DNA from: Deltaproteobacteria bacterium
Lineage (GTDB): Bacteria > Desulfobacterota > Dissulfuribacteria > Dissulfuribacterales > JALVPX01
Assembly: GCA_027023445.1 (NCBI GenBank)
Contig: JALVVK010000127.1
Location: 10,615-74,614, forward strand
Length of the DNA stretch: 64,000 nucleotides
Direction of reading: 5' to 3'
This document shows, in pieces, positions 2,724 through 64,000 of this stretch. The notes under the pieces were generated by a model that saw only the letters and a program-made list of their open reading frames with translations, was not told the DNA's origin and did no database searches. How positions within the stretch are numbered: position 1 is the stretch's first letter; every line of letters starts with the position of its first letter. Made by a program: the position numbers and the translations under genes.

Positions 2724-4022
2724 ATGTCCTTTGAATGGTTCGTTGCCCTGAGATATCTCAGGGCCGGGCGCAAGCAGGCCTTCATTTCCCTGATTACCTG
2801 TATCTCCATTCTGGGAGTGGCAGTGGGGGTCATGGCCCTTATTGTGGTGATAGCGGTTATGGCAGGTTTCCAGGACCACCTGCGCACCAAGATCCTTGGG
2901 ATCAATTCTCATATCCTGGTCAGGCATTACTACGGCCCGTTTGATAATCCCGATAAAATCGGCAAAAAGATCATGTCCGTGAGGGTGAAACGCCCTGGCG
3001 TCCTGGGAAATTTTCTAAATGACGTTCTGGGGGAAAAAGATGGTGTCCATGTCACCGCGTTGACCCCTTTTGTTAATATTCAGGCATTATTGAGTTCAGG
3101 GACAAGGGTCAGCGGAGCTGTGATAAGGGGCGTTGATCCGGATACGGTGACAAAGGTTATCAACATTGGAGATATTATAGACGGAGAGGGCATAAGCGCG
3201 CTCAAAAAATATGGTAAGAATGGCAGACGGATACCGGGTATTATCCTTGGCAAGGAGATGGCCCGAACATTAGGGGTATCCGTCGGACAGAGCATTCATG
3301 TGGTGCTACCCTCAGGGACCATCAGCCCGGTGGGCATGCTTCCCAAAATTCGACCATTCAGGGTAATAGGAATCACAACCACGGGTGTTTATGAATACGA
3401 CGCCTCTTTTGCGTTTATCTCTATCCACGCCGCCCAGAAGCTGCTCGGCATAGGGAACAGGGTACAGGGTTTTGAGCTCAAGGTTTCTGACATCTACGCG
3501 GCAGACAGGCTGAGCCAGGCCATTCAGAAGGCCCTTGGCTTTCCCTTTTGGACTATCGACTGGCAGCACATGAGCAGGAATCTTTTTTCCGCCCTTAAAC
3601 TCGAAAAGTTAGCCATGTTTATCGTTCTCACCCTTATCGTCCTGGTGGCGGCCTTTAATATTATCAGCACCCTTATCATGATGGTCATGGAGAAAAAACA
3701 GGATATCGCAATACTGAAGGCCCTGGGGGCATCTGACCGGAAAATCCTGAGAATTTTTATGTACAACGGCATCACCATCGGGCTTATAGGCACCCTTATG
3801 GGCACTGTGGGCGGTATCGGTCTATGCTGGGCGCTCAGCCGTTACAAATTTATAAAAATCCCTGCCGATGTATATTACACCAGTACTCTTCCCATCCTTT
3901 TGCATACCAGTGATGTGCTTGCCATATCAATAAGCACGATGATTATATGTTTTTGCGCCACAATCTACCCTGCGAGACAGGCCGCAAAGATCAATCCTTC
4001 AGAGGCATTGCGAAACAGTTGA
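2724..4022 (+). CDS. Lipoprotein-releasing system permease (LolC/LolE family, FtsX-like)
   Basis: 432 aa. N-terminus MSFEWFVALRYLRAGRKQAFIS is the LolC/E signature. It has a large periplasmic loop and a C-terminal FtsX-type 3-TM bundle. No lolD ATPase gene follows. Confidence 0.85.
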   Translation: MSFEWFVALRYLRAGRKQAFISLITCISILGVAVGVMALIVVIAVMAGFQDHLRTKILGINSHILVRHYYGPFDNPDKIGKKIMSVRVKRPGVLGNFLNDVLGEKDGVHVTALTPFVNIQALLSSGTRVSGAVIRGVDPDTVTKVINIGDIIDGEGISALKKYGKNGRRIPGIILGKEMARTLGVSVGQSIHVVLPSGTISPVGMLPKIRPFRVIGITTTGVYEYDASFAFISIHAAQKLLGIGNRVQGFELKVSDIYAADRLSQAIQKALGFPFWTIDWQHMSRNLFSALKLEKLAMFIVLTLIVLVAAFNIISTLIMMVMEKKQDIAILKALGASDRKILRIFMYNGITIGLIGTLMGTVGGIGLCWALSRYKFIKIPADVYYTSTLPILLHTSDVLAISISTMIICFCATIYPARQAAKINPSEALRNS

Positions 4023-10945: not shown

Positions 10946-11237
10946 TTGTATTGTAACAGGTTTGTTCCTCCATATTTTTTCAGCAAATTTCCGTCAAGCA
11001 CCAAAATCGTAAAATATAAGGCATCCACATGCAATTGTCCCGAATTATTGCCAAACCAGAAATCGGTTATCACATTACAGAAATTTGATTATCCCGGATA
11101 ATGTCATGTTCACGCATGGCCGACAGATTGGATTTAAGCGGCGCTTACGAATTTTCCTTCCATGCCATGGCGGCAGACCTTGCCGGAGACGGGCAGTAAA
11201 CGTCCAATGAAAATAATTCAGGAAATTGAACATGTTA

Positions 11238-11345
11238 TGGTGAATTGCCGCAAGGGACTCACAATTTTGCCGAATCTACAAGGCAGAGGGCGCACAGACG
11301 TACTTTATGTACTTCAGGTGCACGACAACGCAGTATCCCGGGTTT
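11238..11345 (+). repeat. Family A repeat, partial copy (conserved core only)
   Basis: TTTGCCGAATCTACAAGGCAGAGGGCGCACAGACGTACTTTATGTACTTCAGGTGCACGACAACGCAG aligns with the cores at 36948-37016 and 63806-63874. It ends in TATCCCGGG. Confidence 0.75.
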
Positions 11346-13697: not shown

Positions 13698-14213
13698 ATG
13701 AACAACAGTCTGGCAGGTATGGAAAAGGTGGTCATCGTTGATGAGGCAAACAGGGTTACAGGTTCAGCTTCCCGATCCGAGATGAGAAGGCATAATCTTA
13801 TTCACCGGGCGACATACGTCCTGGTGTTTAATTCGCAAGGGAATCTCTTTGTTCACAAGCGCACTGCCTGCAAGGACCTTTATCCAGGCCATTATGACGT
13901 TGCCGCGGGCGGTGTGGTGCTCGCAGGAGAACGCTATGAGGAAGGGGCAAAACGTGAACTTGAAGAAGAATTAGGGATCTCTGGCACGCGGTTAACAAAA
14001 TCCTTTGATTTTTATCACCAAAGCAGACACAACAGGGTGTGGGGAAGGGTTTTTTCCTGCATCCATGACGGGCCTGTACGTTTACAGAAGGAAGAGGTTG
14101 AACACGGCTGTTTCATGGAAATTGGACAGATACTACGGATGATGGGAACCCACCCATTCACTCCGGACGGGGTTCTGGTGCTGCGCCGTTATCTTGATTC
14201 ACATGGGGCATAA
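13698..14213 (+). CDS. Nudix hydrolase (IDI-like/YfcD-like subfamily, not an IDI)
   Basis: Intact Nudix box GGVVLAGERYEEGAKRELEEELGI. The N-terminus resembles type 1 IDI, but the IDI Cys motif is absent. GGAGGA RBS. Confidence 0.8.
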   Translation: MNNSLAGMEKVVIVDEANRVTGSASRSEMRRHNLIHRATYVLVFNSQGNLFVHKRTACKDLYPGHYDVAAGGVVLAGERYEEGAKRELEEELGISGTRLTKSFDFYHQSRHNRVWGRVFSCIHDGPVRLQKEEVEHGCFMEIGQILRMMGTHPFTPDGVLVLRRYLDSHGA

Positions 14214-14471
14214 TCCCGGATTATGCACTTCAAATACCGAATAAAATAATTTCTTCTATAATTTAAGCATGTTGTTGTCAATATAACACCAAAAATATTC
14301 ACCTGAATGCTGACAAGTTCCAATAGCAAAAATGTTCGGCATTTAAAGCCATAAGGGGCTCGCAATTTCACCGAATTTACTGCGTTGTCGGGCAGTTGAA
14401 GTACCATAATGTCTGCATGCCCTCCGCCTTGCACCTTTGACAAACTTGCGAGCTGCATAATCCGGGATTAT
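14208..14471 (-). repeat. Family A repeat, full copy in inverted orientation, with extended palindromic ends
   Basis: Ends are GCATAATCCCGGATTATGCAC and GCTGCATAATCCGGGATTAT. The reverse complement aligns with 36926-37180 at both ends and in the core. The left end overlaps the Nudix stop codon at 14211-14213. Confidence 0.85.
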
Positions 14472-14562
14472 CCGCTTCCGTGGATTCAGGGCCGGTTTAT
14501 TTCGGCCACAGGCCTTGGTTTTTCCGCTTGAAGTCATGCGACATGACATGTATTGTCCATCC

Positions 14563-16332
14563 ATGTCGTTGAAAATTCTTCTGATATATCCGTATTGCCT
14601 TGAAGAAAGGGGCAAGGATTACGATGTAAGGCCTGTACCAATAGGGGTTTACTATATCGGGGCACTCCTCAGGGAACATGGCTACGACATAGAAATACTG
14701 AATTGGTACAATATTAATAAATTCCCTGAAAAAATTAGTGAACTCCTCGAGCAAAAACGACCTGACATAATTGGCCTTTCCGTGCTGCAGGCCAATCGAT
14801 GGGGCGCACTGGAGATCGCTAAAGCCGCAAAAAAACTGAACCCGGACGTCAAAATTGTATACGGAGGAGTGGCGGCCACATTCCTCTGGCGTCATTTTCT
14901 TTCCCATTTTTCAGAAGTGGATTTTATTGTGCTGGGAGAGGGGGAATACACATTCCTTAACCTGGTAAAAGGCTTGGAAAAAAATGACCTGGAAGCCTTG
15001 GAGAAGACTGGTGGCCTTGCCTTCAGGAAGAATGGCACCCCATTCAGGACAGGGGAACCGACGCCCGTGGAAGATATCGACAGACTTCCCGTGCCTTCAA
15101 AATACTTTGATTATCAACATGTGGTTTCGGCAAGGGGATGTCCATGGAACTGCACGTTCTGTGGATCACCCCGGTTCTGGGGACGCAAAGTCCGTTTCCA
15201 TTCCCCTGATTATTTCGTCGATCAACTGGAATTGCTTTATAAAAAGGGCATAAACTTCTTCTATGTATCTGACGATACCTTCACCCTCAAAAAAAACAGG
15301 GTCATCGAAATCTGCAGACAGATCATAAAACGGGGCCTTCGTATTACATGGCAGGCCATATCAAGGGTTGACTGCGTTGACGAGGACATACTTTACTGGA
15401 TGCGTCTTGCCGGCTGCGTGCAGATAAGCTATGGGGTTGAAAGCGGCTCCAAAAAAATGAGGGATTTCTTCAATAAAAAAACAGATACGGCCACCATCAA
15501 GAAAACTTTCAACCTGACAAGGTCCTACGGAATCCTCGCAAGGGCCTATTTCATCTATGGATCCCCGGGAGAGACATGGGAAACCATTCAGGAAAGCATA
15601 GACCTCATACATGAAACAAGGCCATTAAGCGTTGTTTTTTACATACTGGACATCTATCCTGGAACCGCCCTGTACGATGACTTCAAGCGAAGAAAAAACA
15701 TATCAGACGATATCTGGCTGAAAAAGATTGAAGACATAATGTATCATGAAACCGATCCCCGCCTCTCGGCGGACCAGATCCTTGCCTTTGGCAGGAAGTT
15801 GCGTACAGATTACTATAATAATCTGCACAGGTTTACCGAACACCTGAATCTGGTTGACAAAAAGGAACTGTACAAGGCCCACGCAGATTTCTGCACCAGG
15901 CTCGCCATGACGTTCCAATTCGGCGACTATGCCCATAACAAACAGGTACAAAACAGGGAACAGGTAGCGGAAAGACTTTTCAAAAAGGCTCTGACATACT
16001 ATCCGGATCATCATGCCTACCTTGGATTAGGCATCATATATCAAAAGAAAAGACAGTTTGAAAAATCCATCAAACTACTTGAGGAAGGCGTACAGCACTA
16101 TCCCGGAAGCCAGCAAATTAATATATGCCTCGGGGTAAGCTACATGAATACCGGCAATTTCCAAAAGGCCCTTTCCTGCTTCCTGCCCTTTAAAAATTCA
16201 CCGGACGCTCTTCAAAGGGCGGCACAGTGCTATGAAATTCTGGGAGATATTGAAAACATGAAGGCCTGCAAAAACCGGATTCAGTCACTGCAGACCTTCT
16301 CTGCCAGGCAGACACATTTCAGTGGCACATAA
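14563..16332 (+). CDS. B12-binding-domain radical SAM protein with C-terminal TPR repeats
   Basis: N-terminal cobalamin-binding-like region (ILLIYPY...GVYYIGALLREHGYDIEILN), radical SAM cluster motif CPWNCTFC, and a TPR-like C-terminus. I prefer the ATG at 14563. Confidence 0.82.
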   Translation: MSLKILLIYPYCLEERGKDYDVRPVPIGVYYIGALLREHGYDIEILNWYNINKFPEKISELLEQKRPDIIGLSVLQANRWGALEIAKAAKKLNPDVKIVYGGVAATFLWRHFLSHFSEVDFIVLGEGEYTFLNLVKGLEKNDLEALEKTGGLAFRKNGTPFRTGEPTPVEDIDRLPVPSKYFDYQHVVSARGCPWNCTFCGSPRFWGRKVRFHSPDYFVDQLELLYKKGINFFYVSDDTFTLKKNRVIEICRQIIKRGLRITWQAISRVDCVDEDILYWMRLAGCVQISYGVESGSKKMRDFFNKKTDTATIKKTFNLTRSYGILARAYFIYGSPGETWETIQESIDLIHETRPLSVVFYILDIYPGTALYDDFKRRKNISDDIWLKKIEDIMYHETDPRLSADQILAFGRKLRTDYYNNLHRFTEHLNLVDKKELYKAHADFCTRLAMTFQFGDYAHNKQVQNREQVAERLFKKALTYYPDHHAYLGLGIIYQKKRQFEKSIKLLEEGVQHYPGSQQINICLGVSYMNTGNFQKALSCFLPFKNSPDALQRAAQCYEILGDIENMKACKNRIQSLQTFSARQTHFSGT

Positions 16333-16341
16333 TATTGGGGC

Positions 16342-16406
16342 ATTATCCGGGGTTGTGCGCCTCAAATGCCTGAAAAAATGATTTCAGCTTCATAACCCGG
16401 GGTTAT
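16342..16406 (-). repeat. Family A miniature derivative (two termini plus ~40 nt of the right arm)
   Basis: ATTATCCGGGGTTGTGCGCCTCAAATGCCTGAAAAAATGATTTCAGCTTCATAACCCGGGGTTAT. It matches the reverse complement of 37141-37180 and is bounded by terminal-type palindromes. Confidence 0.65.
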
Positions 16407-16426
16407 CGGACATGAGGTATTCGTTG

Positions 16427-16943: not shown

Positions 16944-17026
16944 TTCATGCCAAGTGGCGCTTCGCTTTGTCCATGTATGTTCTTGTGTGTCCATGGCTAA
17001 TCAAAAAATGCATTTTCGGATAAAAT
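16944..17026 (+). repeat. Family B repeat, partial (half hairpin plus the 60-nt right module)
   Basis: TTCATGCCAAGTGGCGCTTCGC, followed by TTTGTCCATGTATGTTCTTGTGTGTCCATGGCTAATCAAAAAATGCATTTTCGGATAAA. It matches 41945-41966 and 42131-42190. Confidence 0.75.
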
Positions 17027-21185: not shown

Positions 21186-21340
21186 TGGACATGAAAACAG
21201 CCAACCACCCGTTTCCTCTGGTCACTCTATAATCTTTAAGTACGTTGTTATCTTAATTCAATATTCAATTCAATATTCAACACTTACCATTCAACATTGC
21301 CATCCCCTGTACCGTGCACCTTGTACCATGGACCGTTAAT
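21186..21340. repeat. Family B-related repeat mosaic with a 12-bp tandem duplication
   Basis: GGACATGAAAAC, then AATTCAATATTC x2 (about 21254-21277), then CACTTACCATTCAACATTG and TGTACCGTGCACCTTGTACCATGGACCGTTAATC. These resemble modules of 42085-42165. Confidence 0.5.
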
Positions 21341-34427: not shown

Positions 34428-34649
34428 CCAGGAGTCAGCCTATTATCCCGGATTACGGCCTGTTTATCTATGGTTCCGTAAAAAGTCTTCCGTTACCCAA
34501 GGCGCAAGTCTTTCTCTTTTTGATAGCAAACAGGTTAAATCGATTTTGGTTTTTGGGCGCTTTAACAGGCAACCCACCTAAAATAATAAACAAAATCACT
34601 TGGGATATTTTTTAGGTCCCCGGTTGAGCAGAAAAATAAAAAAGGGGTC

Positions 34650-35094: not shown

Positions 35095-36768
<1,674 letters not shown>

Positions 36769-36850: not shown

Positions 36851-36925
36851 TAGCCTGCCATTCCCTCAGATTTCAGCGCCTTGCCATGGGGAATACTGAT
36901 CTGTTTTTTTGCCTCATTCCTTTAA

Positions 36926-37180
36926 CCCGGATTATGCAGCTCGTAAGTTTGCCGAAGATGCAAGGCAAAGGGCACGCAGACGTACTTGTATACTTCAACT
37001 GCCCGACAACGCAGCAGATTCGGTAAATTTGCGAGTTCCTTGTGGCTTCAAGTGCCTGAGATGTAACACTGGAGGAAACCGCACCTTTTAGGTTAACAAA
37101 ATATCTGGCTGAATCGCGGCTAACTCTTTAATCATTCGACAAAAATCATTTTCTCAGGCGCTTGAAGTGCATAATCCGGG
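36926..37180 (+). repeat. Family A repeat, full copy (reference copy A1)
   Basis: Termini CCCGGATTATGCA and TGCATAATCCGGG. Helix 1 pairs 36940-36953 with 37022-37035. Helix 2 pairs 37046-37060 with 37153-37167. About 92% identical to 63784-64000. Confidence 0.9.
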
Positions 37181-37349
37181 TTTGAGGTTCAAATTTTGAG
37201 CTTGCTTTCTTCCCCAGGTTACAAGTCACCGCCTCAGCACAAAAGTTTAGATAATCATTTATTGATGAAGCAGAACCTGCGTGTTAGTTTGGATGAAAAA
37301 TTTAATTGTTGAGAACCTACCTTAGGATAGGGGTTCTGAGGAGATATCC

Positions 37350-38777
37350 ATGGATTATGAAGTCGTCATAGGGCTTGAGGTTCACGTACAGCTTAAGACT
37401 GAAAGCAAAATTTTTTGTGGATGCTCCACCACTTTTGGCGCGCCGCCCAACACCCATACATGCCCTGTTTGTCTTGGGATGCCAGGGGTCCTTCCCGTGT
37501 TGAACAGGAACGTGGTGGAATATGCCATGAGGATGGCTCTGGCGACAAATTGCCAGATCGCTCCATACAGCCAGTTTGCCCGGAAAAACTATTTCTATCC
37601 GGATTTGCCCAAAGGGTACCAGATTTCCCAGTATGAATTACCCCTGGCCGAACACGGATGGGTTGAAATCGACTTGAACGGACAGACCAAACGTATCGGA
37701 ATTACCCGAATACATCTTGAAGAGGATGCGGGAAAACTTATACATGATGAAAACAGGCCGGTCAGCTATGTCGACCTTAACCGCACAGGGGTGCCGCTGA
37801 TTGAGATTGTCAGCGAGCCTGACATGAGGGATCCCGAAGAGGCGGGAGCATACCTTAAAAAATTGCGCCAGCTTGTTCGTTACCTGGGAATAAGTGATGG
37901 CAACATGGAGGAAGGGAGCCTCCGGTGCGACGCAAATATATCCCTCAGGCCCAGGGGCCAGGATGAACTTGGCGTCAAATCCGAACTCAAGAACATGAAT
38001 TCCTTTCGCCATGTGCAGAAGGCCCTGGAATATGAAATAAGACGTCAGAGCGCCCTTTTAATGGATAACCGGAAGGTTGTCCAGGAAACCCGGCTGTGGG
38101 ACCATGGCAGAGGCGTCACCGTAGCCATGAGAGGCAAGGAGGAGGCGCATGATTACCGGTATTTCCCCGATCCCGATCTGGTGCCGGTCAGGATTGAAGA
38201 CCAATGGCTGGAATCCGTTAAAAAAAGCCTGCCTGAGCTCCCTGATATAAAAAGAGAAAGATTTGTCAGGGAATACGGCCTGCCCGCCTACGACGCGGGA
38301 GTTCTCACATCTTCCCGTTCCATGGCCGATTATTTTGAATCATGCGTAAAGGCGTTTCCCAGGCCTAAGACAGTCAGCAACTGGATAATGGTGGAACTGA
38401 TCCGGCTTCTGAAGCAGGACAACAGGGAAATCAGCGCATGCCCGGTCAGCGCGGACCATCTGGCAGGACTCCTGAAGTTGCTGGAAAAAGGAACCATCAG
38501 TGGCAAAATGGCCAAGGATGTACTGGAGCAGGCATACAGCACAGGCACTTCTCCTGAAGAAATAGTGAGGGAACAAGGCCTTGCCCAGGTAAGCGATGAG
38601 GCCACGCTCAGGGCTGTTATCCAGGAGGTCATAGACGACTGTCCACAGGAAGTGGAAAAATACCGGGCAGGCAAACACAAAATTCTGGGGTTCCTGGTTG
38701 GCCAGGTAATGAAACGGACAAAGGGCAAGGCCAATCCCCAGAAGGTCAACGCCCTTTTAAGGGAGTTGCTGGGATAG
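37350..38777 (+). CDS. gatB: Asp/Glu-tRNA(Asn/Gln) amidotransferase subunit B
   Basis: [15 protein letters not shown]... and a C-terminal YqeY-like tail. 475 aa. Confidence 0.95.
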
Positions 38778-41943: not shown

Positions 41944-42190
41944 CTTCATGCTAAGTGGTGTTTCGCACCCCGGAGCATGAAAATGTTGAATGATAAATGG
42001 TGAATTGTAAATTGCGGCAAACAAATTTTTATTAAATTCAGAAGGATATAATAACTTAACACCTTAACTTAACATTCAGGATTTACCATTTAACATTGTA
42101 TTTTCAATGCGCTTCTGGGAACATTTTGTTTTTTGTCCATGTACGTCCTTGTGTATTAATGACCAATCAAAAAATGCATTCTGGAATAAA
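41944..42190 (+). repeat. Family B repeat, longest composite copy (reference copy B1)
   Basis: Hairpin TTCATGCT/AGCATGAA (41945-41981). An internal inverted repeat pairs 41975-42005 with 42075-42110. TTAACAC modules are present. The right module 42131-42190 is shared with 16966-17026. Confidence 0.8.
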
Positions 42191-42192
42191 TC

Positions 42193-43053
42193 ATGAGAAG
42201 ACTTGATCTATATCTTGCCGGGGTTAAAGACGCCAGGTGCAGAAAATATCTCTCAGTGGCAGGCGCTGCCGCCTTGAAGGCAGGGGGCGTGCTGAAGGGC
42301 CTTTACGGGCAGCCTCATCAAATCAGGCACAAGGGAGAGATAGACCTGGTTACTGAGGCAGACGTCGCCTCTGAGAAAACAGTGATAGAAATCTGTTCAC
42401 AGGGGCTTCCAGAGGCGGAAATACTGGCCGAAGAATCAAATTCTGACTCTGACTATGCGGGTGTGCCCGGCAATCTGACATGGATTGTTGATCCTTTGGA
42501 CGGCACCACCAATTTTGCCCACGGGTTTCCGTGGTTCTGTGTATCCATTGCCCTGGCAGCCCGGGGCAAAATCGTGGCAGGGGTAATATATGCCCCGGTT
42601 TTTGATGATTTTTTTTGCGCCTGCCGGGGTTACGGGGCATGTCTTAATGGTGCCCCGATAAATGTTTCAGAAGAATCCGGGCTCTCCGGATCCCTTGTGG
42701 CAACGGGTTTTCCATATGACATCCACAGGCATCCCCGGCCGGTGATGCGGGCACTTGAAGCCATGATAGTAAAGGCCCAGGGCATAAGGAGGGCAGGGGC
42801 CGCCGCCATGGACCTGGCATATGTTGCCTGCGGCAGGCTTGATGGTTTCTGGGAAATAAAACTCAAGCCATGGGACACGGCGGCAGGCCAGCTTCTGGTG
42901 GAAGAGGCTGGAGGCAAGGTTACAGACCTAAGCGGCCGGAATTACAATCCTTTTATCCCTGAAATCCTGGCATCCAACGGGAAAATCCACGCCGCGATGA
43001 CAGACGCATTGCGACCTTTCAGCTCAGCACACATGCAAGGTGAAGTCAGATGA
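42193..43053 (+). CDS. suhB: Inositol monophosphatase family protein
   Basis: [20 protein letters not shown] and WDTAAG motifs. Confidence 0.88.
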
Positions 43054-43525: not shown

Positions 43526-44512
43526 TCACCTATCCTTTCCTATTGCTCCGTGCACGACTACCCTGTTGCCTCCGGTTTTTTTGGCAGCATACATGGCGTC
43601 ATCGGCCTGGTGGACCAGACGGTTCAGTTTATCCCTTAATTTTTCAGAGGTGTTCTCAAATTTGGCAATCCCTATGCTCAGGGATGTGCCAGCCACGTTG
43701 CTGAGACCATGATATTTTTTCCTTATACGTTCCGCAATCTGTTCAACCTGGTCATCCGTTGCCTGCGGGACAATCACCGTAAATTCATCCCCCCCGTATC
43801 TGAAGGGTGTGTCCACATGATGCCTGGTGGAACTGGTCAACACCCCGGCCATAACCTTCAGGACCTTGTCACCTTCCGTATGGCCCAGAGTGTCGTTTAC
43901 TTCCTTGAAATTGTCCAGATCAATCATAAGCAGGAAAAGTGGGTAATTCTGCCTTGAGGCCCTCTCTGCCTCCTCTTCCAGGCGCTGCTCAAAAAAACGT
44001 CTGTTGTAAAGATCGGTCAACGGATCCCTTACAGACAGGCGACGCAACATGGATCTTAAGGCCCTTTCTCGGATTATTCTGTTGAGCTTTGCCTCGAATT
44101 CATCCAGATTAAAGGGTTTTTTAATAAAATCACTCGCTCCTGCCCCGATTACATCAGTATAGGTGAACTCTCTGCCATAGCCGGTCATGACAAGGATATC
44201 CGTGTTAGGCCACTTTTTTTTGACCTTTTTCATAAGGCTCATTCCATCAAGCCTGGGCATTATCAAATCGGTTACAAGAATGGTACAGGGAGCCTGCTCC
44301 AGAAGGGACATGGCCTCTTTGCCATCTGCGGCACTCCGGTATCTGTACCCCAGCCTCGTACAGAACTCCTTCAGCAAGGCAAGTATGGTTGGATCATCAT
44401 CCACGATGAGAAGACGCTGGGATTCGATAAGAGGTATCTCCAATGACTGCATGTATTTTTTTTCAGATAAATTGTTTTTATCAAACGGACACATAAAAAA
44501 CCAACCGGACAT
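43526..44512 (-). CDS. Response regulator receiver plus GGDEF diguanylate cyclase
   Basis: LLIVDDDP...VTDLIMPRLDG receiver and RYGGDEF active-site motif. The start is uncertain (44512 or 44452). Confidence 0.88.
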   Translation of the reverse strand: MSGWFFMCPFDKNNLSEKKYMQSLEIPLIESQRLLIVDDDPTILALLKEFCTRLGYRYRSAADGKEAMSLLEQAPCTILVTDLIMPRLDGMSLMKKVKKKWPNTDILVMTGYGREFTYTDVIGAGASDFIKKPFNLDEFEAKLNRIIRERALRSMLRRLSVRDPLTDLYNRRFFEQRLEEEAERASRQNYPLFLLMIDLDNFKEVNDTLGHTEGDKVLKVMAGVLTSSTRHHVDTPFRYGGDEFTVIVPQATDDQVEQIAERIRKKYHGLSNVAGTSLSIGIAKFENTSEKLRDKLNRLVHQADDAMYAAKKTGGNRVVVHGAIGKDR

Positions 44513-44834
44513 CTAAGCCGTTAAGACATTCGCAGGGCTTGCCCTGACGGCCGTTCTATAAATCATAAAATGGAATTATAGGCACATTCAATCTATTTTA
44601 ATAATATACAGACAGTTATTATATCTCAAGCTAAAATCTTCCCGGCGCATCTCCATAAGTGTCAAAAAAATGTCACAAATTATTTGACAGGGTCCAAACG
44701 TCTAATTACTTATTATTATGTGTATGAATCTAAAGCCAGATCATGTATTTTAAATGCCAAACAACATTTATTTTGATGAGGCGCATCTTTTACCGTTAAA
44801 ATATAACACTGAATGGTAATTTCTGAATATTAAA

Positions 44835-44960
44835 TTAAGGTGCCAAGTTGTTATCTCTTTCTGAATTTAATAAAAACTTATTTACCGCAATTTGCAATTC
44901 AACTTTTATCATTCAACATTTTCATGCTCTGGGATGGAAACATCGCCTGGCATGAATGCC
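44835..44960 (-). repeat. Family B repeat, inverted copy of the left ~125 nt of B1
   Basis: The reverse complement reads GGCATTCATGCCAGGCGATGTTTCCATCCCAGAGCATGAAAATGTTGAATGATAAAAGTTGAATTGCAAATTGCGGTAAA... and aligns with 41944-42070. Confidence 0.8.
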
Positions 44961-63783: not shown

Positions 63784-64000
63784 CCCGGATTATGCAGCCC
63801 GCAAGTTTGCCGAAGATGCAAGGCGACGGGCACGCAGACGTACTTGTGTACTTCAAGTGTCCGACAAGGCGGCAGATTCGGTAAATTTGCGGGTCCCTTG
63901 TGGCTTCAAGTGCCTGAGATGTAACACTGGAGGAAACCGCACCTTTTAGGTGAACAAAATGTCTGGCTGGATTGCGGCTAAGTCTTTAATTGTTCGACCA
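63784..64000 (+). repeat. Family A repeat, copy A2 (3' end outside window)
   Basis: By hand count, 18 substitutions and no indels against 36926-37142 over about 215 nt. Confidence 0.9.

Follow-up and report, generated by a model that had tools for sequence, protein, structure and literature searches.

A repeat that folds better on one strand in a deltaproteobacterial contig: a candidate miniature transposable element of IS1380 type

Introduction

In the 64,000-nt stretch of deltaproteobacterial DNA analysed here (contig JALVVK010000127.1; hereafter the window, with positions counted from its first letter), one repeat of ~250 nt, alignable end to end, is present as the copies A1, A2 and A3. 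Its two hairpins, helix 1 and helix 2, pair better on one strand than on the other, and this raises the question of whether the repeat is a gene for a structured RNA, as the original prediction proposed from A1 and A3, or an element of another kind. The evidence described below points away from a free-standing structured RNA gene and towards mobile DNA, since the repeat has terminal inverted repeats, 5-bp target-site duplications and a link to an IS1380-family transposase. We consider it somewhat better than an even bet that A1, A2 and A3 are copies of a ~250-bp non-autonomous MITE, or miniature inverted-repeat transposable element, of IS1380 type; this judgement covers the whole explanation, i.e., both the derivation from an IS1380 element and a filtering of the pairing in single-stranded form.

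Results

Terminal repeats and target-site duplications

Both ends of A1 and A3, like those of 15 loci in genomes, carry the 13-nt terminal inverted repeat CCCGGATTATGCA without mismatch; within the window, there were 10 matches to the terminal repeat where 2.45 were expected. The 15 loci were obtained by scanning one genome per GTDB species for two terminal repeats separated by a gap. Eleven of them, in four deltaproteobacterial/Desulfobacteraceae metagenome-assembled genomes (MAGs), belong to the A1/A3 family, and the same 13-nt ends surround unrelated interiors at four loci in a Leptospiraceae MAG and at one in a Calditrichota MAG. A metagenome scan with the 19-nt right end revealed 23 further loci, giving 38 loci with differing neighbours beyond the window (genomes and metagenomes; loci outside the window, including those on IMG/VR contigs, carry L-numbers). 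Distant repeat-like matches at L026, L027 and L029 in the metagenome scan were dismissed as host genes or chance. A literature search for the repeat sequence returned primers only.

With 13 nt assigned to the terminal repeat, AT-rich direct repeats of 5 bp are left on either side, among them ATAAA, TTTAA, TTCAT and TTCAA. At 19 of the 41 terminal-repeat pairs these match perfectly, as compared with an average of 2.5, and at most 8, in permuted flanks; those of A3 and A1 are imperfect, with four of five positions matching in each. Another delimitation, with a 7-bp duplication at GTTWAAC that hinted at integron attC-like cores, was superseded by the 13-nt repeat with its 5-bp duplication, which is perfect in 19 copies. 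In seven of 26 copies (A3, L001, L012, L026, L027, L030 and L034), the duplication contains the stop codon of a flanking open reading frame at least 100 codons long, TAA in five cases and TGA in two; the element lands on gene ends and regenerates them. The extended palindromic end of A3 had been described as overlapping the stop codon of the neighbouring Nudix gene. That stop does lie inside it, but the extension is the imperfect, near-complementary duplication ATAAT/ATTAT and not part of an RNA.

The copies are 234-265 nt long and non-coding. Internal deletion derivatives of 165, 148, 117, 111, 83, 72 and 66 nt keep the ends, most of them with perfect duplications, and the 148-nt derivative (L027) is without exactly the helix-1 module, being a simple fold-back with terminal repeats of 27-28 bp. 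Relative to flanking open frames, about 10 copies are co-directional and 9 opposed, i.e., orientation is about random. Terminal repeats, 5-bp duplications, deletion derivatives, random orientation and the lack of a conserved frame together mark the repeat as a MITE. In A3, an 89-codon frame (14189-14458, minus strand) starts at an ATG within the left terminal repeat (GGATTATGCAG); a coding role was ruled out, because the frame is not conserved, ending after 30 codons in A1 and being disrupted in the family by indels (1, 2, 10 and 11 nt). Any sense-strand transcript of the element would bear an AUG at its 5' end.

Insertion sequences of the IS1380 family with matching ends

A local tblastn search with a transposase sequence of ISEcp1, the best-known member of the IS1380 family, matched L015 at E 7e-11; the transposases found are only about 24% identical to this query. 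The contig of the hit, in a related MAG, carries a 1672-bp insertion sequence (L045, 3356-5027) with the left inverted repeat CCCAAATTATGCAGCTCGCAGG and the right inverted repeat ...GCTGCATAATCCGGG; a MITE copy (1951-2204) lies ~640 bp away. The transposase of this insertion sequence is frameshifted and matches NCBIfam model NF033539 (IS1380 family) in two collinear fragments, at E 1e-20 (profile positions 159-316) and 2e-8 (37-122), which score under the cut-off for the whole protein (180 bits) owing to the broken gene; fragments also match Pfam PF13701 (E 2e-11). A second insertion sequence with these ends, 1597 bp in length, occupies positions 3237-4833 of L047. A third copy lies in L046, from position 1108. 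The 1672- and 1597-bp insertion sequences have the ends CCCAAATTATGCAGC / CCCGGATTATGCAGC, and the transposase genes are all frameshifted or truncated.

The left end of the MITE, CCCGGATTATGCAGCTCGCAAG, agrees with the left end of the L045 insertion sequence at 19 of 22 positions, and the sense strand of the MITE is therefore the transposase-coding strand. Members of the IS1380 family have ends that start with CC, direct repeats of 4-5 bp and lengths of about 1.55-2.0 kb. The CCC... ends, the 5-bp duplications and the lengths of 1672 and 1597 bp observed here fit this description. The genes next to the element fragments in L020 and L008 are those of AAA ATPase, DEAD helicase and M48 peptidase proteins, with no transposase among them. 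Scanning metagenomes for the 19-nt right end yielded copies and remnants and no autonomous element.

Helices and covariation

The base pairs on which the original prediction relied are all present. Helix 2 of A1 pairs CTTCAAGTGCCTGAG (37046-37060) with CTCAGGCGCTTGAAG (37153-37167) and includes the U-G pair 37053:37160, while helix 1 of A1 includes 36944:37031 (U-G), 36947:37028 (G-U) and 36951:37024 (G-U). On the minus strand of A3, helix 2 pairs CTTTAAATGCCGAA with TTCGGTATTTGAAG; positions 14231:14345 and 14236:14340, which read C-A and A-C on the plus strand, are both G-U on the minus strand. Helix 2 prolongs the terminal repeats inward, around a ~90-nt loop that is variable save for a small hairpin motif. 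This motif, CA(C/G)C-UUYW-GGUGAA, is common to A3 and A1, and the two loops, between which no obvious similarity had been noted, are thus not wholly unrelated.

In an alignment of 21 copies, 93.1% of helix cells are paired, and the value falls to 24-43% when the partners are slid by 1-3 columns. Sixteen of the 61 pairs change on both sides across the copies, and the covariation score of 0.191, versus 0.134 in shuffles, was reached by none of 500 shuffles. Both helices are preserved through compensatory changes, in A3 as predicted and in the larger family. The closing stem made of the terminal repeats never covaries; it is the transposase-binding repeat. Covariation by itself does not separate an RNA from a DNA hairpin or palindrome.

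Strand asymmetry

RNAfold gave lower energies for the sense strand of A1 (-104.4 kcal/mol, z -9.3, versus -89.0, z -6.2, for the antisense strand) and for that of A3, which is the minus strand (-76.7, z -3.7, versus -64.1 kcal/mol, z -3.3, for the plus strand). The sense strand was the lower in 19 of 21 copies, by -9.6 kcal/mol on average, and RNAalifold returned -23.1 for sense and -10.0 for antisense. Among helix cells, 117 G-U stand against 49 A-C, so that the sense strand has 93.1% of its cells paired and the opposite strand 87.6%; in helix 2 alone the counts are 55 and 11. In these cell counts, the excess of G-U on the sense strand that had been noted in A1 and A3 extends to the family as a whole. 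The accompanying claim that pairing is complete on one strand only does not, given the 49 A-C cells.

The excess depends on how widely a variant is shared and resides in old variants common to several copies. Variants confined to a single copy are symmetric (16 G-U versus 19 A-C). Those in at least three copies divide 13 to 4 (p 0.049) and those in at least five copies 8 to 1 (p 0.039), and a Mann-Whitney test gave p = 0.023. We conclude that the asymmetry of G-U over A-C is real but statistically modest. G-T is the mildest mismatch in single-stranded DNA, and the asymmetry therefore does not separate RNA from single-stranded DNA. Of the earlier proposal that selection on a transcript produced the asymmetry, what stands is that compensatory change preserves both helices, that the same strand folds better in nearly all copies and that this also holds for hairpins whose stems evolved independently; the proposal is thus supported in part. 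The symmetric singletons, and single-stranded DNA as another possible source, speak against taking it further. A transcript of defined polarity is plausible. Rfam 15 gave no match in the window at gathering score, and none over A1 with the limit relaxed to E 10.

Helix 1 as a separate module

A covariance model of helix 1 matched all full copies and, in addition, three sites that have no CCCGGATTATGCA terminal repeats, namely two in L020 (240-339, minus strand; 2998-3097, plus strand) and one in L042 (11083-11183, minus strand), an IMG/VR contig classed as viral. These stand-alone hairpins carry the same apical domain, GAUGCAAGG ... GGGCAC ... GUACUUUGGUAC ... GUGCCCGACAACGCAG, on different compensated basal stems, CTGCTTACAGGGTGCTACAGAT and CCGTTTACAGGGTGCCGCAGAT. 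With them added to the alignment, 16 of the 24 pairs of the module vary on both sides, and no shuffle out of 500 attains the observed value on any measure. Helix 1 must therefore be regarded as a separate module. The stand-alone hairpins of L020 and L042 again fold better on the sense strand, which lends the polarity independent support. The first L020 hairpin folds at -55.2 on the sense strand versus -41.1 kcal/mol on the antisense strand and the second at -40.9 versus -32.0 kcal/mol; the L042 stem, judged by eye, has four G-U pairs and zero A-C. Helix 1 of L001 is equal on both strands (-54.6 versus -54.2 kcal/mol). When viral contigs were scanned with a degenerate apical motif, one true hairpin, that of L042, was recovered along with four chance matches in coding DNA.

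It is conceivable, if rather doubtful, that the helix-1 hairpin is a structured RNA or single-stranded DNA signal of its own, its apical domain conserved and its basal stem free to covary, and that an IS1380-type MITE has captured it and now spreads it. If so, the transposon would be the vehicle of a functional non-coding module, with polarity tied to the transposase-sense strand.

Other elements with the same ends

Further MITE families with identical 13-nt ends and unrelated interiors occur in the Leptospiraceae MAG (L005, L009, L010 and L011), in the Calditrichota MAG (L008, which carries several copies ending in CCCAGATTATGCA) and in an IMG/VR contig (L044, 444-533), where a 90-nt element in viral sequence is flanked by the duplication TTAAA. 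Within the Leptospiraceae MITE (~244 nt) lie a symmetric hairpin resembling a terminator, AAAACCGCC...GGCGGTTTT, and, further inside, a degenerate right end.

In L019 (~2050-2300), L022, L036 and L038, a reading frame is broken at a TTTAA site by 29 nt left over from the right end of the MITE, TTCGGTATTTGAAGTGCATAATCCGGGTT. By eye, the interrupted frame resembles an IS200/RAYT-type HUH transposase (...IHHVITRG..., ...GYAISF|NRRHG...).

Copies and other repeats in the window

The window holds three intact and two decayed copies (Table 1). A3 is antisense to both of its neighbours, as had been noted, its sense strand being the minus strand and the Nudix-family and B12-binding radical-SAM genes (Pfam) lying on the plus strand. 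One decayed copy is directly 3' of the stop codon of this radical-SAM gene, which has A3 upstream and is therefore flanked by the element on both sides. The other, upstream of a PAS histidine-kinase gene, has the helix-1 loop in plus orientation, then an inverted arm and junction, then the degenerate right end TATCCCGGG; it looks as if its hairpin loop had been inverted through recombination between the arms. A similar inversion is seen in L026 (2814-2879).

Table 1. Copies of the repeat in the window, their parts and the genes next to A3 (positions are those of the window)
Feature	Position	Strand	Evidence and remarks
A3, complete MITE copy, 252 nt	14215..14466	sense = minus	nhmmer 220 bits, alignments, folds
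A3 left terminal inverted repeat	14454..14466	-	exact CCCGGATTATGCA read on minus strand
A3 right terminal inverted repeat	14215..14227	+	exact CCCGGATTATGCA read on plus strand
A3 target-site duplication, copy 1, ATAAT	14210..14214		contains the Nudix stop TAA
A3 target-site duplication, copy 2, ATTAT	14467..14471		4/5 identical to copy 1
A3 helix-1 module, ~100-nt irregular hairpin beside left terminal repeat	14356..14454	-	covariance model R1, 99.4 bits; pair counts
A3 helix 2	14228..14349	-	arms 14336-14349 and 14228-14241 around ~94-nt AT-rich variable loop
Nudix-family gene	13698..14213	+	Pfam NUDIX; stop TAA at 14211-14213
B12-binding radical-SAM gene	14515..16332	+	Pfam
A1, complete copy, 255 nt	36926..37180	+	between groEL-like gene (35113-36768) and gatB (37350-38777)
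A1 target-site duplication, TTTAA / TTTGA	36921..36925 / 37181..37185
A2, ended by the window end	63784..64000	+	92% identity to A1
Decayed, rearranged copy	11201..11345	+	41 bits, covariance-model positions 22-79
Decayed miniature copy	16347..16419	-	nhmmer model positions 182-252; degenerate left end CCCGGGTTATGAAGC, right end GGCATTTGAGGCGCACAACCCCGG

Two short palindromes, GATTATCCCGGATAATG and ATTATCCCGGATTACGG (11087-11103 and 34442-34458), resemble two abutted element ends with AT swapped; they may be footprints, another type of repeat or chance. The window also contains two 139-nt inverted repeats, 84% complementary (41966-42104 and 44798-44936), which bracket a gene of the inositol-monophosphatase family (42193-43053) and a response-regulator/GGDEF gene (43526-44512). 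Shorter related pieces lie in other intergenic regions (21266-21309, 16966-17024 and 42132-42190). The 139-nt repeats are either a second intergenic repeat family unrelated to the MITE or a duplicated regulatory region.

Discussion

In the explanation that we favour, the MITE would be derived from an element of the IS1380 family with a DDE transposase, which would presumably move it in trans. Insertion takes place in AT-rich pentamers with a 5-bp duplication, the target often including the TAA stop codon of a gene, as in A3. The body of the element is a fold-back, in which helix 2 extends the terminal repeats inward and helix 1 sits just inside the left repeat. In lineages that went on multiplying, the pairing was probably filtered in a single-stranded form of the sense strand, which tolerated G-U and not A-C; once inserted, individual copies would decay neutrally and symmetrically. 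It is the shared variants, i.e., those of lineages that spread, that are biased to G-U, and this points to a single-stranded form of the sense strand, either RNA or single-stranded DNA. We regard RNA as roughly twice as likely as single-stranded DNA. An RNA form would mean that transcription enters from the side of the left repeat, as in the parent insertion sequence. Our best guess is that this compact fold-back keeps both ends together and, when transcription occurs, renders the element harmless and complete in itself.

Several observations weigh against this explanation. The polarity statistics (p about 0.02-0.05) are marginal, because the copies share ancestry, and parsimony on a neighbour-joining tree counted 51 changes to G-U versus 41 to A-C (14 versus 8 on internal branches). 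A scan of A1 and A3 for sigma-70-like promoters found none; a terminator scan of the same copies gave two terminator-like hits, which do not exceed chance clearly (0.8 and 0.6 expected from shuffles), and none at an element end. In the Leptospiraceae MITE family, the fold preference is inconsistent, ranging from -7 to +9 kcal/mol between the strands. The alignment behind the pair counts of the helix-1 module was fitted to the model, which favours structure. Arm-to-arm template switching can give compensatory changes in DNA palindromes without selection. As for the parent, the insertion sequences found are pseudogenes in related MAGs, outside the window, and a homology search for an intact transposase produced only eight fragmentary proteins; mobilisation of the MITE is thus something that we infer. 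The three insertion-sequence copies have only ~22 nt in common with the MITE, and their 5' leaders are without helix 1. The hairpin was therefore not simply inherited from the transposase mRNA leader, and the reading of helix 1 as such a leader was rejected.

A number of these points would be expected if the repeat were the same IS1380-type MITE and its asymmetry had no function. The handful of G-T rather than A-C mismatches that a founder chanced to carry would then have passed to all its descendants, with the arms kept complementary by template switching or gene conversion and by recurrent deletion and recombination. The symmetric singletons, the near-equal tree-based counts, the equal strands of L001 helix 1, the random orientation relative to genes, the outcome of the promoter and terminator scans and the inconsistent strand preference of other families with these ends all agree with it, and the copies with inverted loops (that at 11201-11345 and that in L026) show that the palindromes recombine. 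Such an account has difficulty with the bias of the high-frequency variants (13:4 and 8:1), with its separate presence in each of the two helices and in the L020 and L042 stems, which evolved independently, and with the preference for the same strand in 19 of 21 copies. We hold it to be possible but unlikely. More improbable is a set of genes for a structured small RNA or riboregulator with its own signals, in which the terminal palindrome would be the closing stem of the RNA, as in the original prediction. Strong covariation in all helices, the better folding of one strand and a helix-1 apical part that is conserved, also outside the MITE, while the basal stem varies freely would be accounted for. 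What decides against it is that the closing stem never covaries and is flanked by 5-bp target duplications, and that identical 13-nt ends enclose unrelated interiors in other phyla as well as an IS1380-family insertion sequence. Derivatives that keep only the ends appear still to have transposed; the promoter and terminator scans, the Rfam search and the random orientation relative to genes are further points against RNA genes.

Two other modes of mobility have little to recommend them. HUH transposases (those of IS200/IS605 and of REPINs) recognise strand-specific hairpins, and the element could have been moved as single-stranded DNA by such an IS200/RAYT-type enzyme, in the manner of REP/REPIN sequences, with its hairpins as substrates. 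A frame of this type, recognised by eye, does lie beside the remnants in L019, L022, L036 and L038, but it is interrupted by the remnant and not associated with it. Elements moved by HUH enzymes are without inverted repeats at both ends and without target duplications; this element has both, and its ends match those of an IS1380-family DDE insertion sequence, which makes the HUH mode very improbable. The least credible candidate is a TIME, a miniature element derived from Tn3. Repeats of the Tn3 family open with GGGG. TIMEs do give 5- or 6-bp duplications in AT-rich targets, but they have homologous 38-bp terminal repeats (PMC4133298), whereas the repeat shared here measures 13-15 nt and opens with CCC. 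The transposase encoded by the insertion sequence that shares these ends is of the IS1380 family and not of the Tn3 family.

With the repeat explained as mobile DNA, A1-A3 should not be annotated as small-RNA genes. A MITE superfamily with the IS1380-type end CCCRRATTATGCA spans Deltaproteobacteria, Leptospiraceae, Calditrichota and a viral contig. To our knowledge, no IS1380-derived MITE has been described, and a non-exhaustive literature search for one found none. If the polarity holds, this would be the second well-supported bacterial MITE, after bcr1, with a fold selected in single-stranded form. It would also hint at a strand-specific step in the life cycle of the IS1380 family, the transposition mechanism of which is, as far as we know, poorly understood.

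In its ends, its target duplication and its partner transposase, the element is to be classed as a derivative of the IS1380 family. ISEcp1, of the IS1380 family, has the left inverted repeat CCTAGATTCTACGT and 5-bp AT-rich direct repeats (PMC6061673). The element resembles it in repeats starting with CC (here CCCAGATTATGCA / CCCGGATTATGCA) and in the 5-bp AT-rich duplications, and differs from it in that the window copies are only ~250 bp long and without a transposase. REPINs are likewise imperfect hairpins of ~100 nt with conserved pairing that multiply within genomes, standing alone as helix 1 does in L020 and L042; unlike the MITE copies, which have terminal repeats, target duplications and a DDE partner, they depend on RAYT and are without such repeats or duplications. 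The ERIC/IRU, Correia (nemis), RUP and BOX MITEs are also short intergenic elements with terminal repeats that form long hairpins when transcribed and can affect neighbouring mRNAs (PMC3184786, in part). They have other terminal repeats, other target sites (TA for Correia) and other parent families, and the MITE family described here is set apart from them by a three-way architecture in which a ~100-nt hairpin module evolves separately.

Compensated structured hairpins in a MITE have a bacterial precedent. In the Bacillus cereus group, bcr1, of the group A bcr repeats, is a dispersed non-coding element of ~155 bp with 5-bp direct repeats at the AT-rich target TTTAT (Delihas 2011, PMC3184786; PMC6542083). 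It is transcribed, and compensatory changes maintain a cruciform-like RNA fold with two independent stem-loops (PMC3184786; PMC6542083). The host phylum differs, transcription has been shown for bcr1, and the element here shares its ends with an IS1380-family insertion sequence. As a small non-coding repeat with 5-bp AT-rich duplications and a compensated two-hairpin fold, bcr1 is nevertheless the closest functional analogue, and our best guess is that this transcribed, compensated repeat, rather than a trans-acting small RNA, would be the precedent for the fold of A1-A3.

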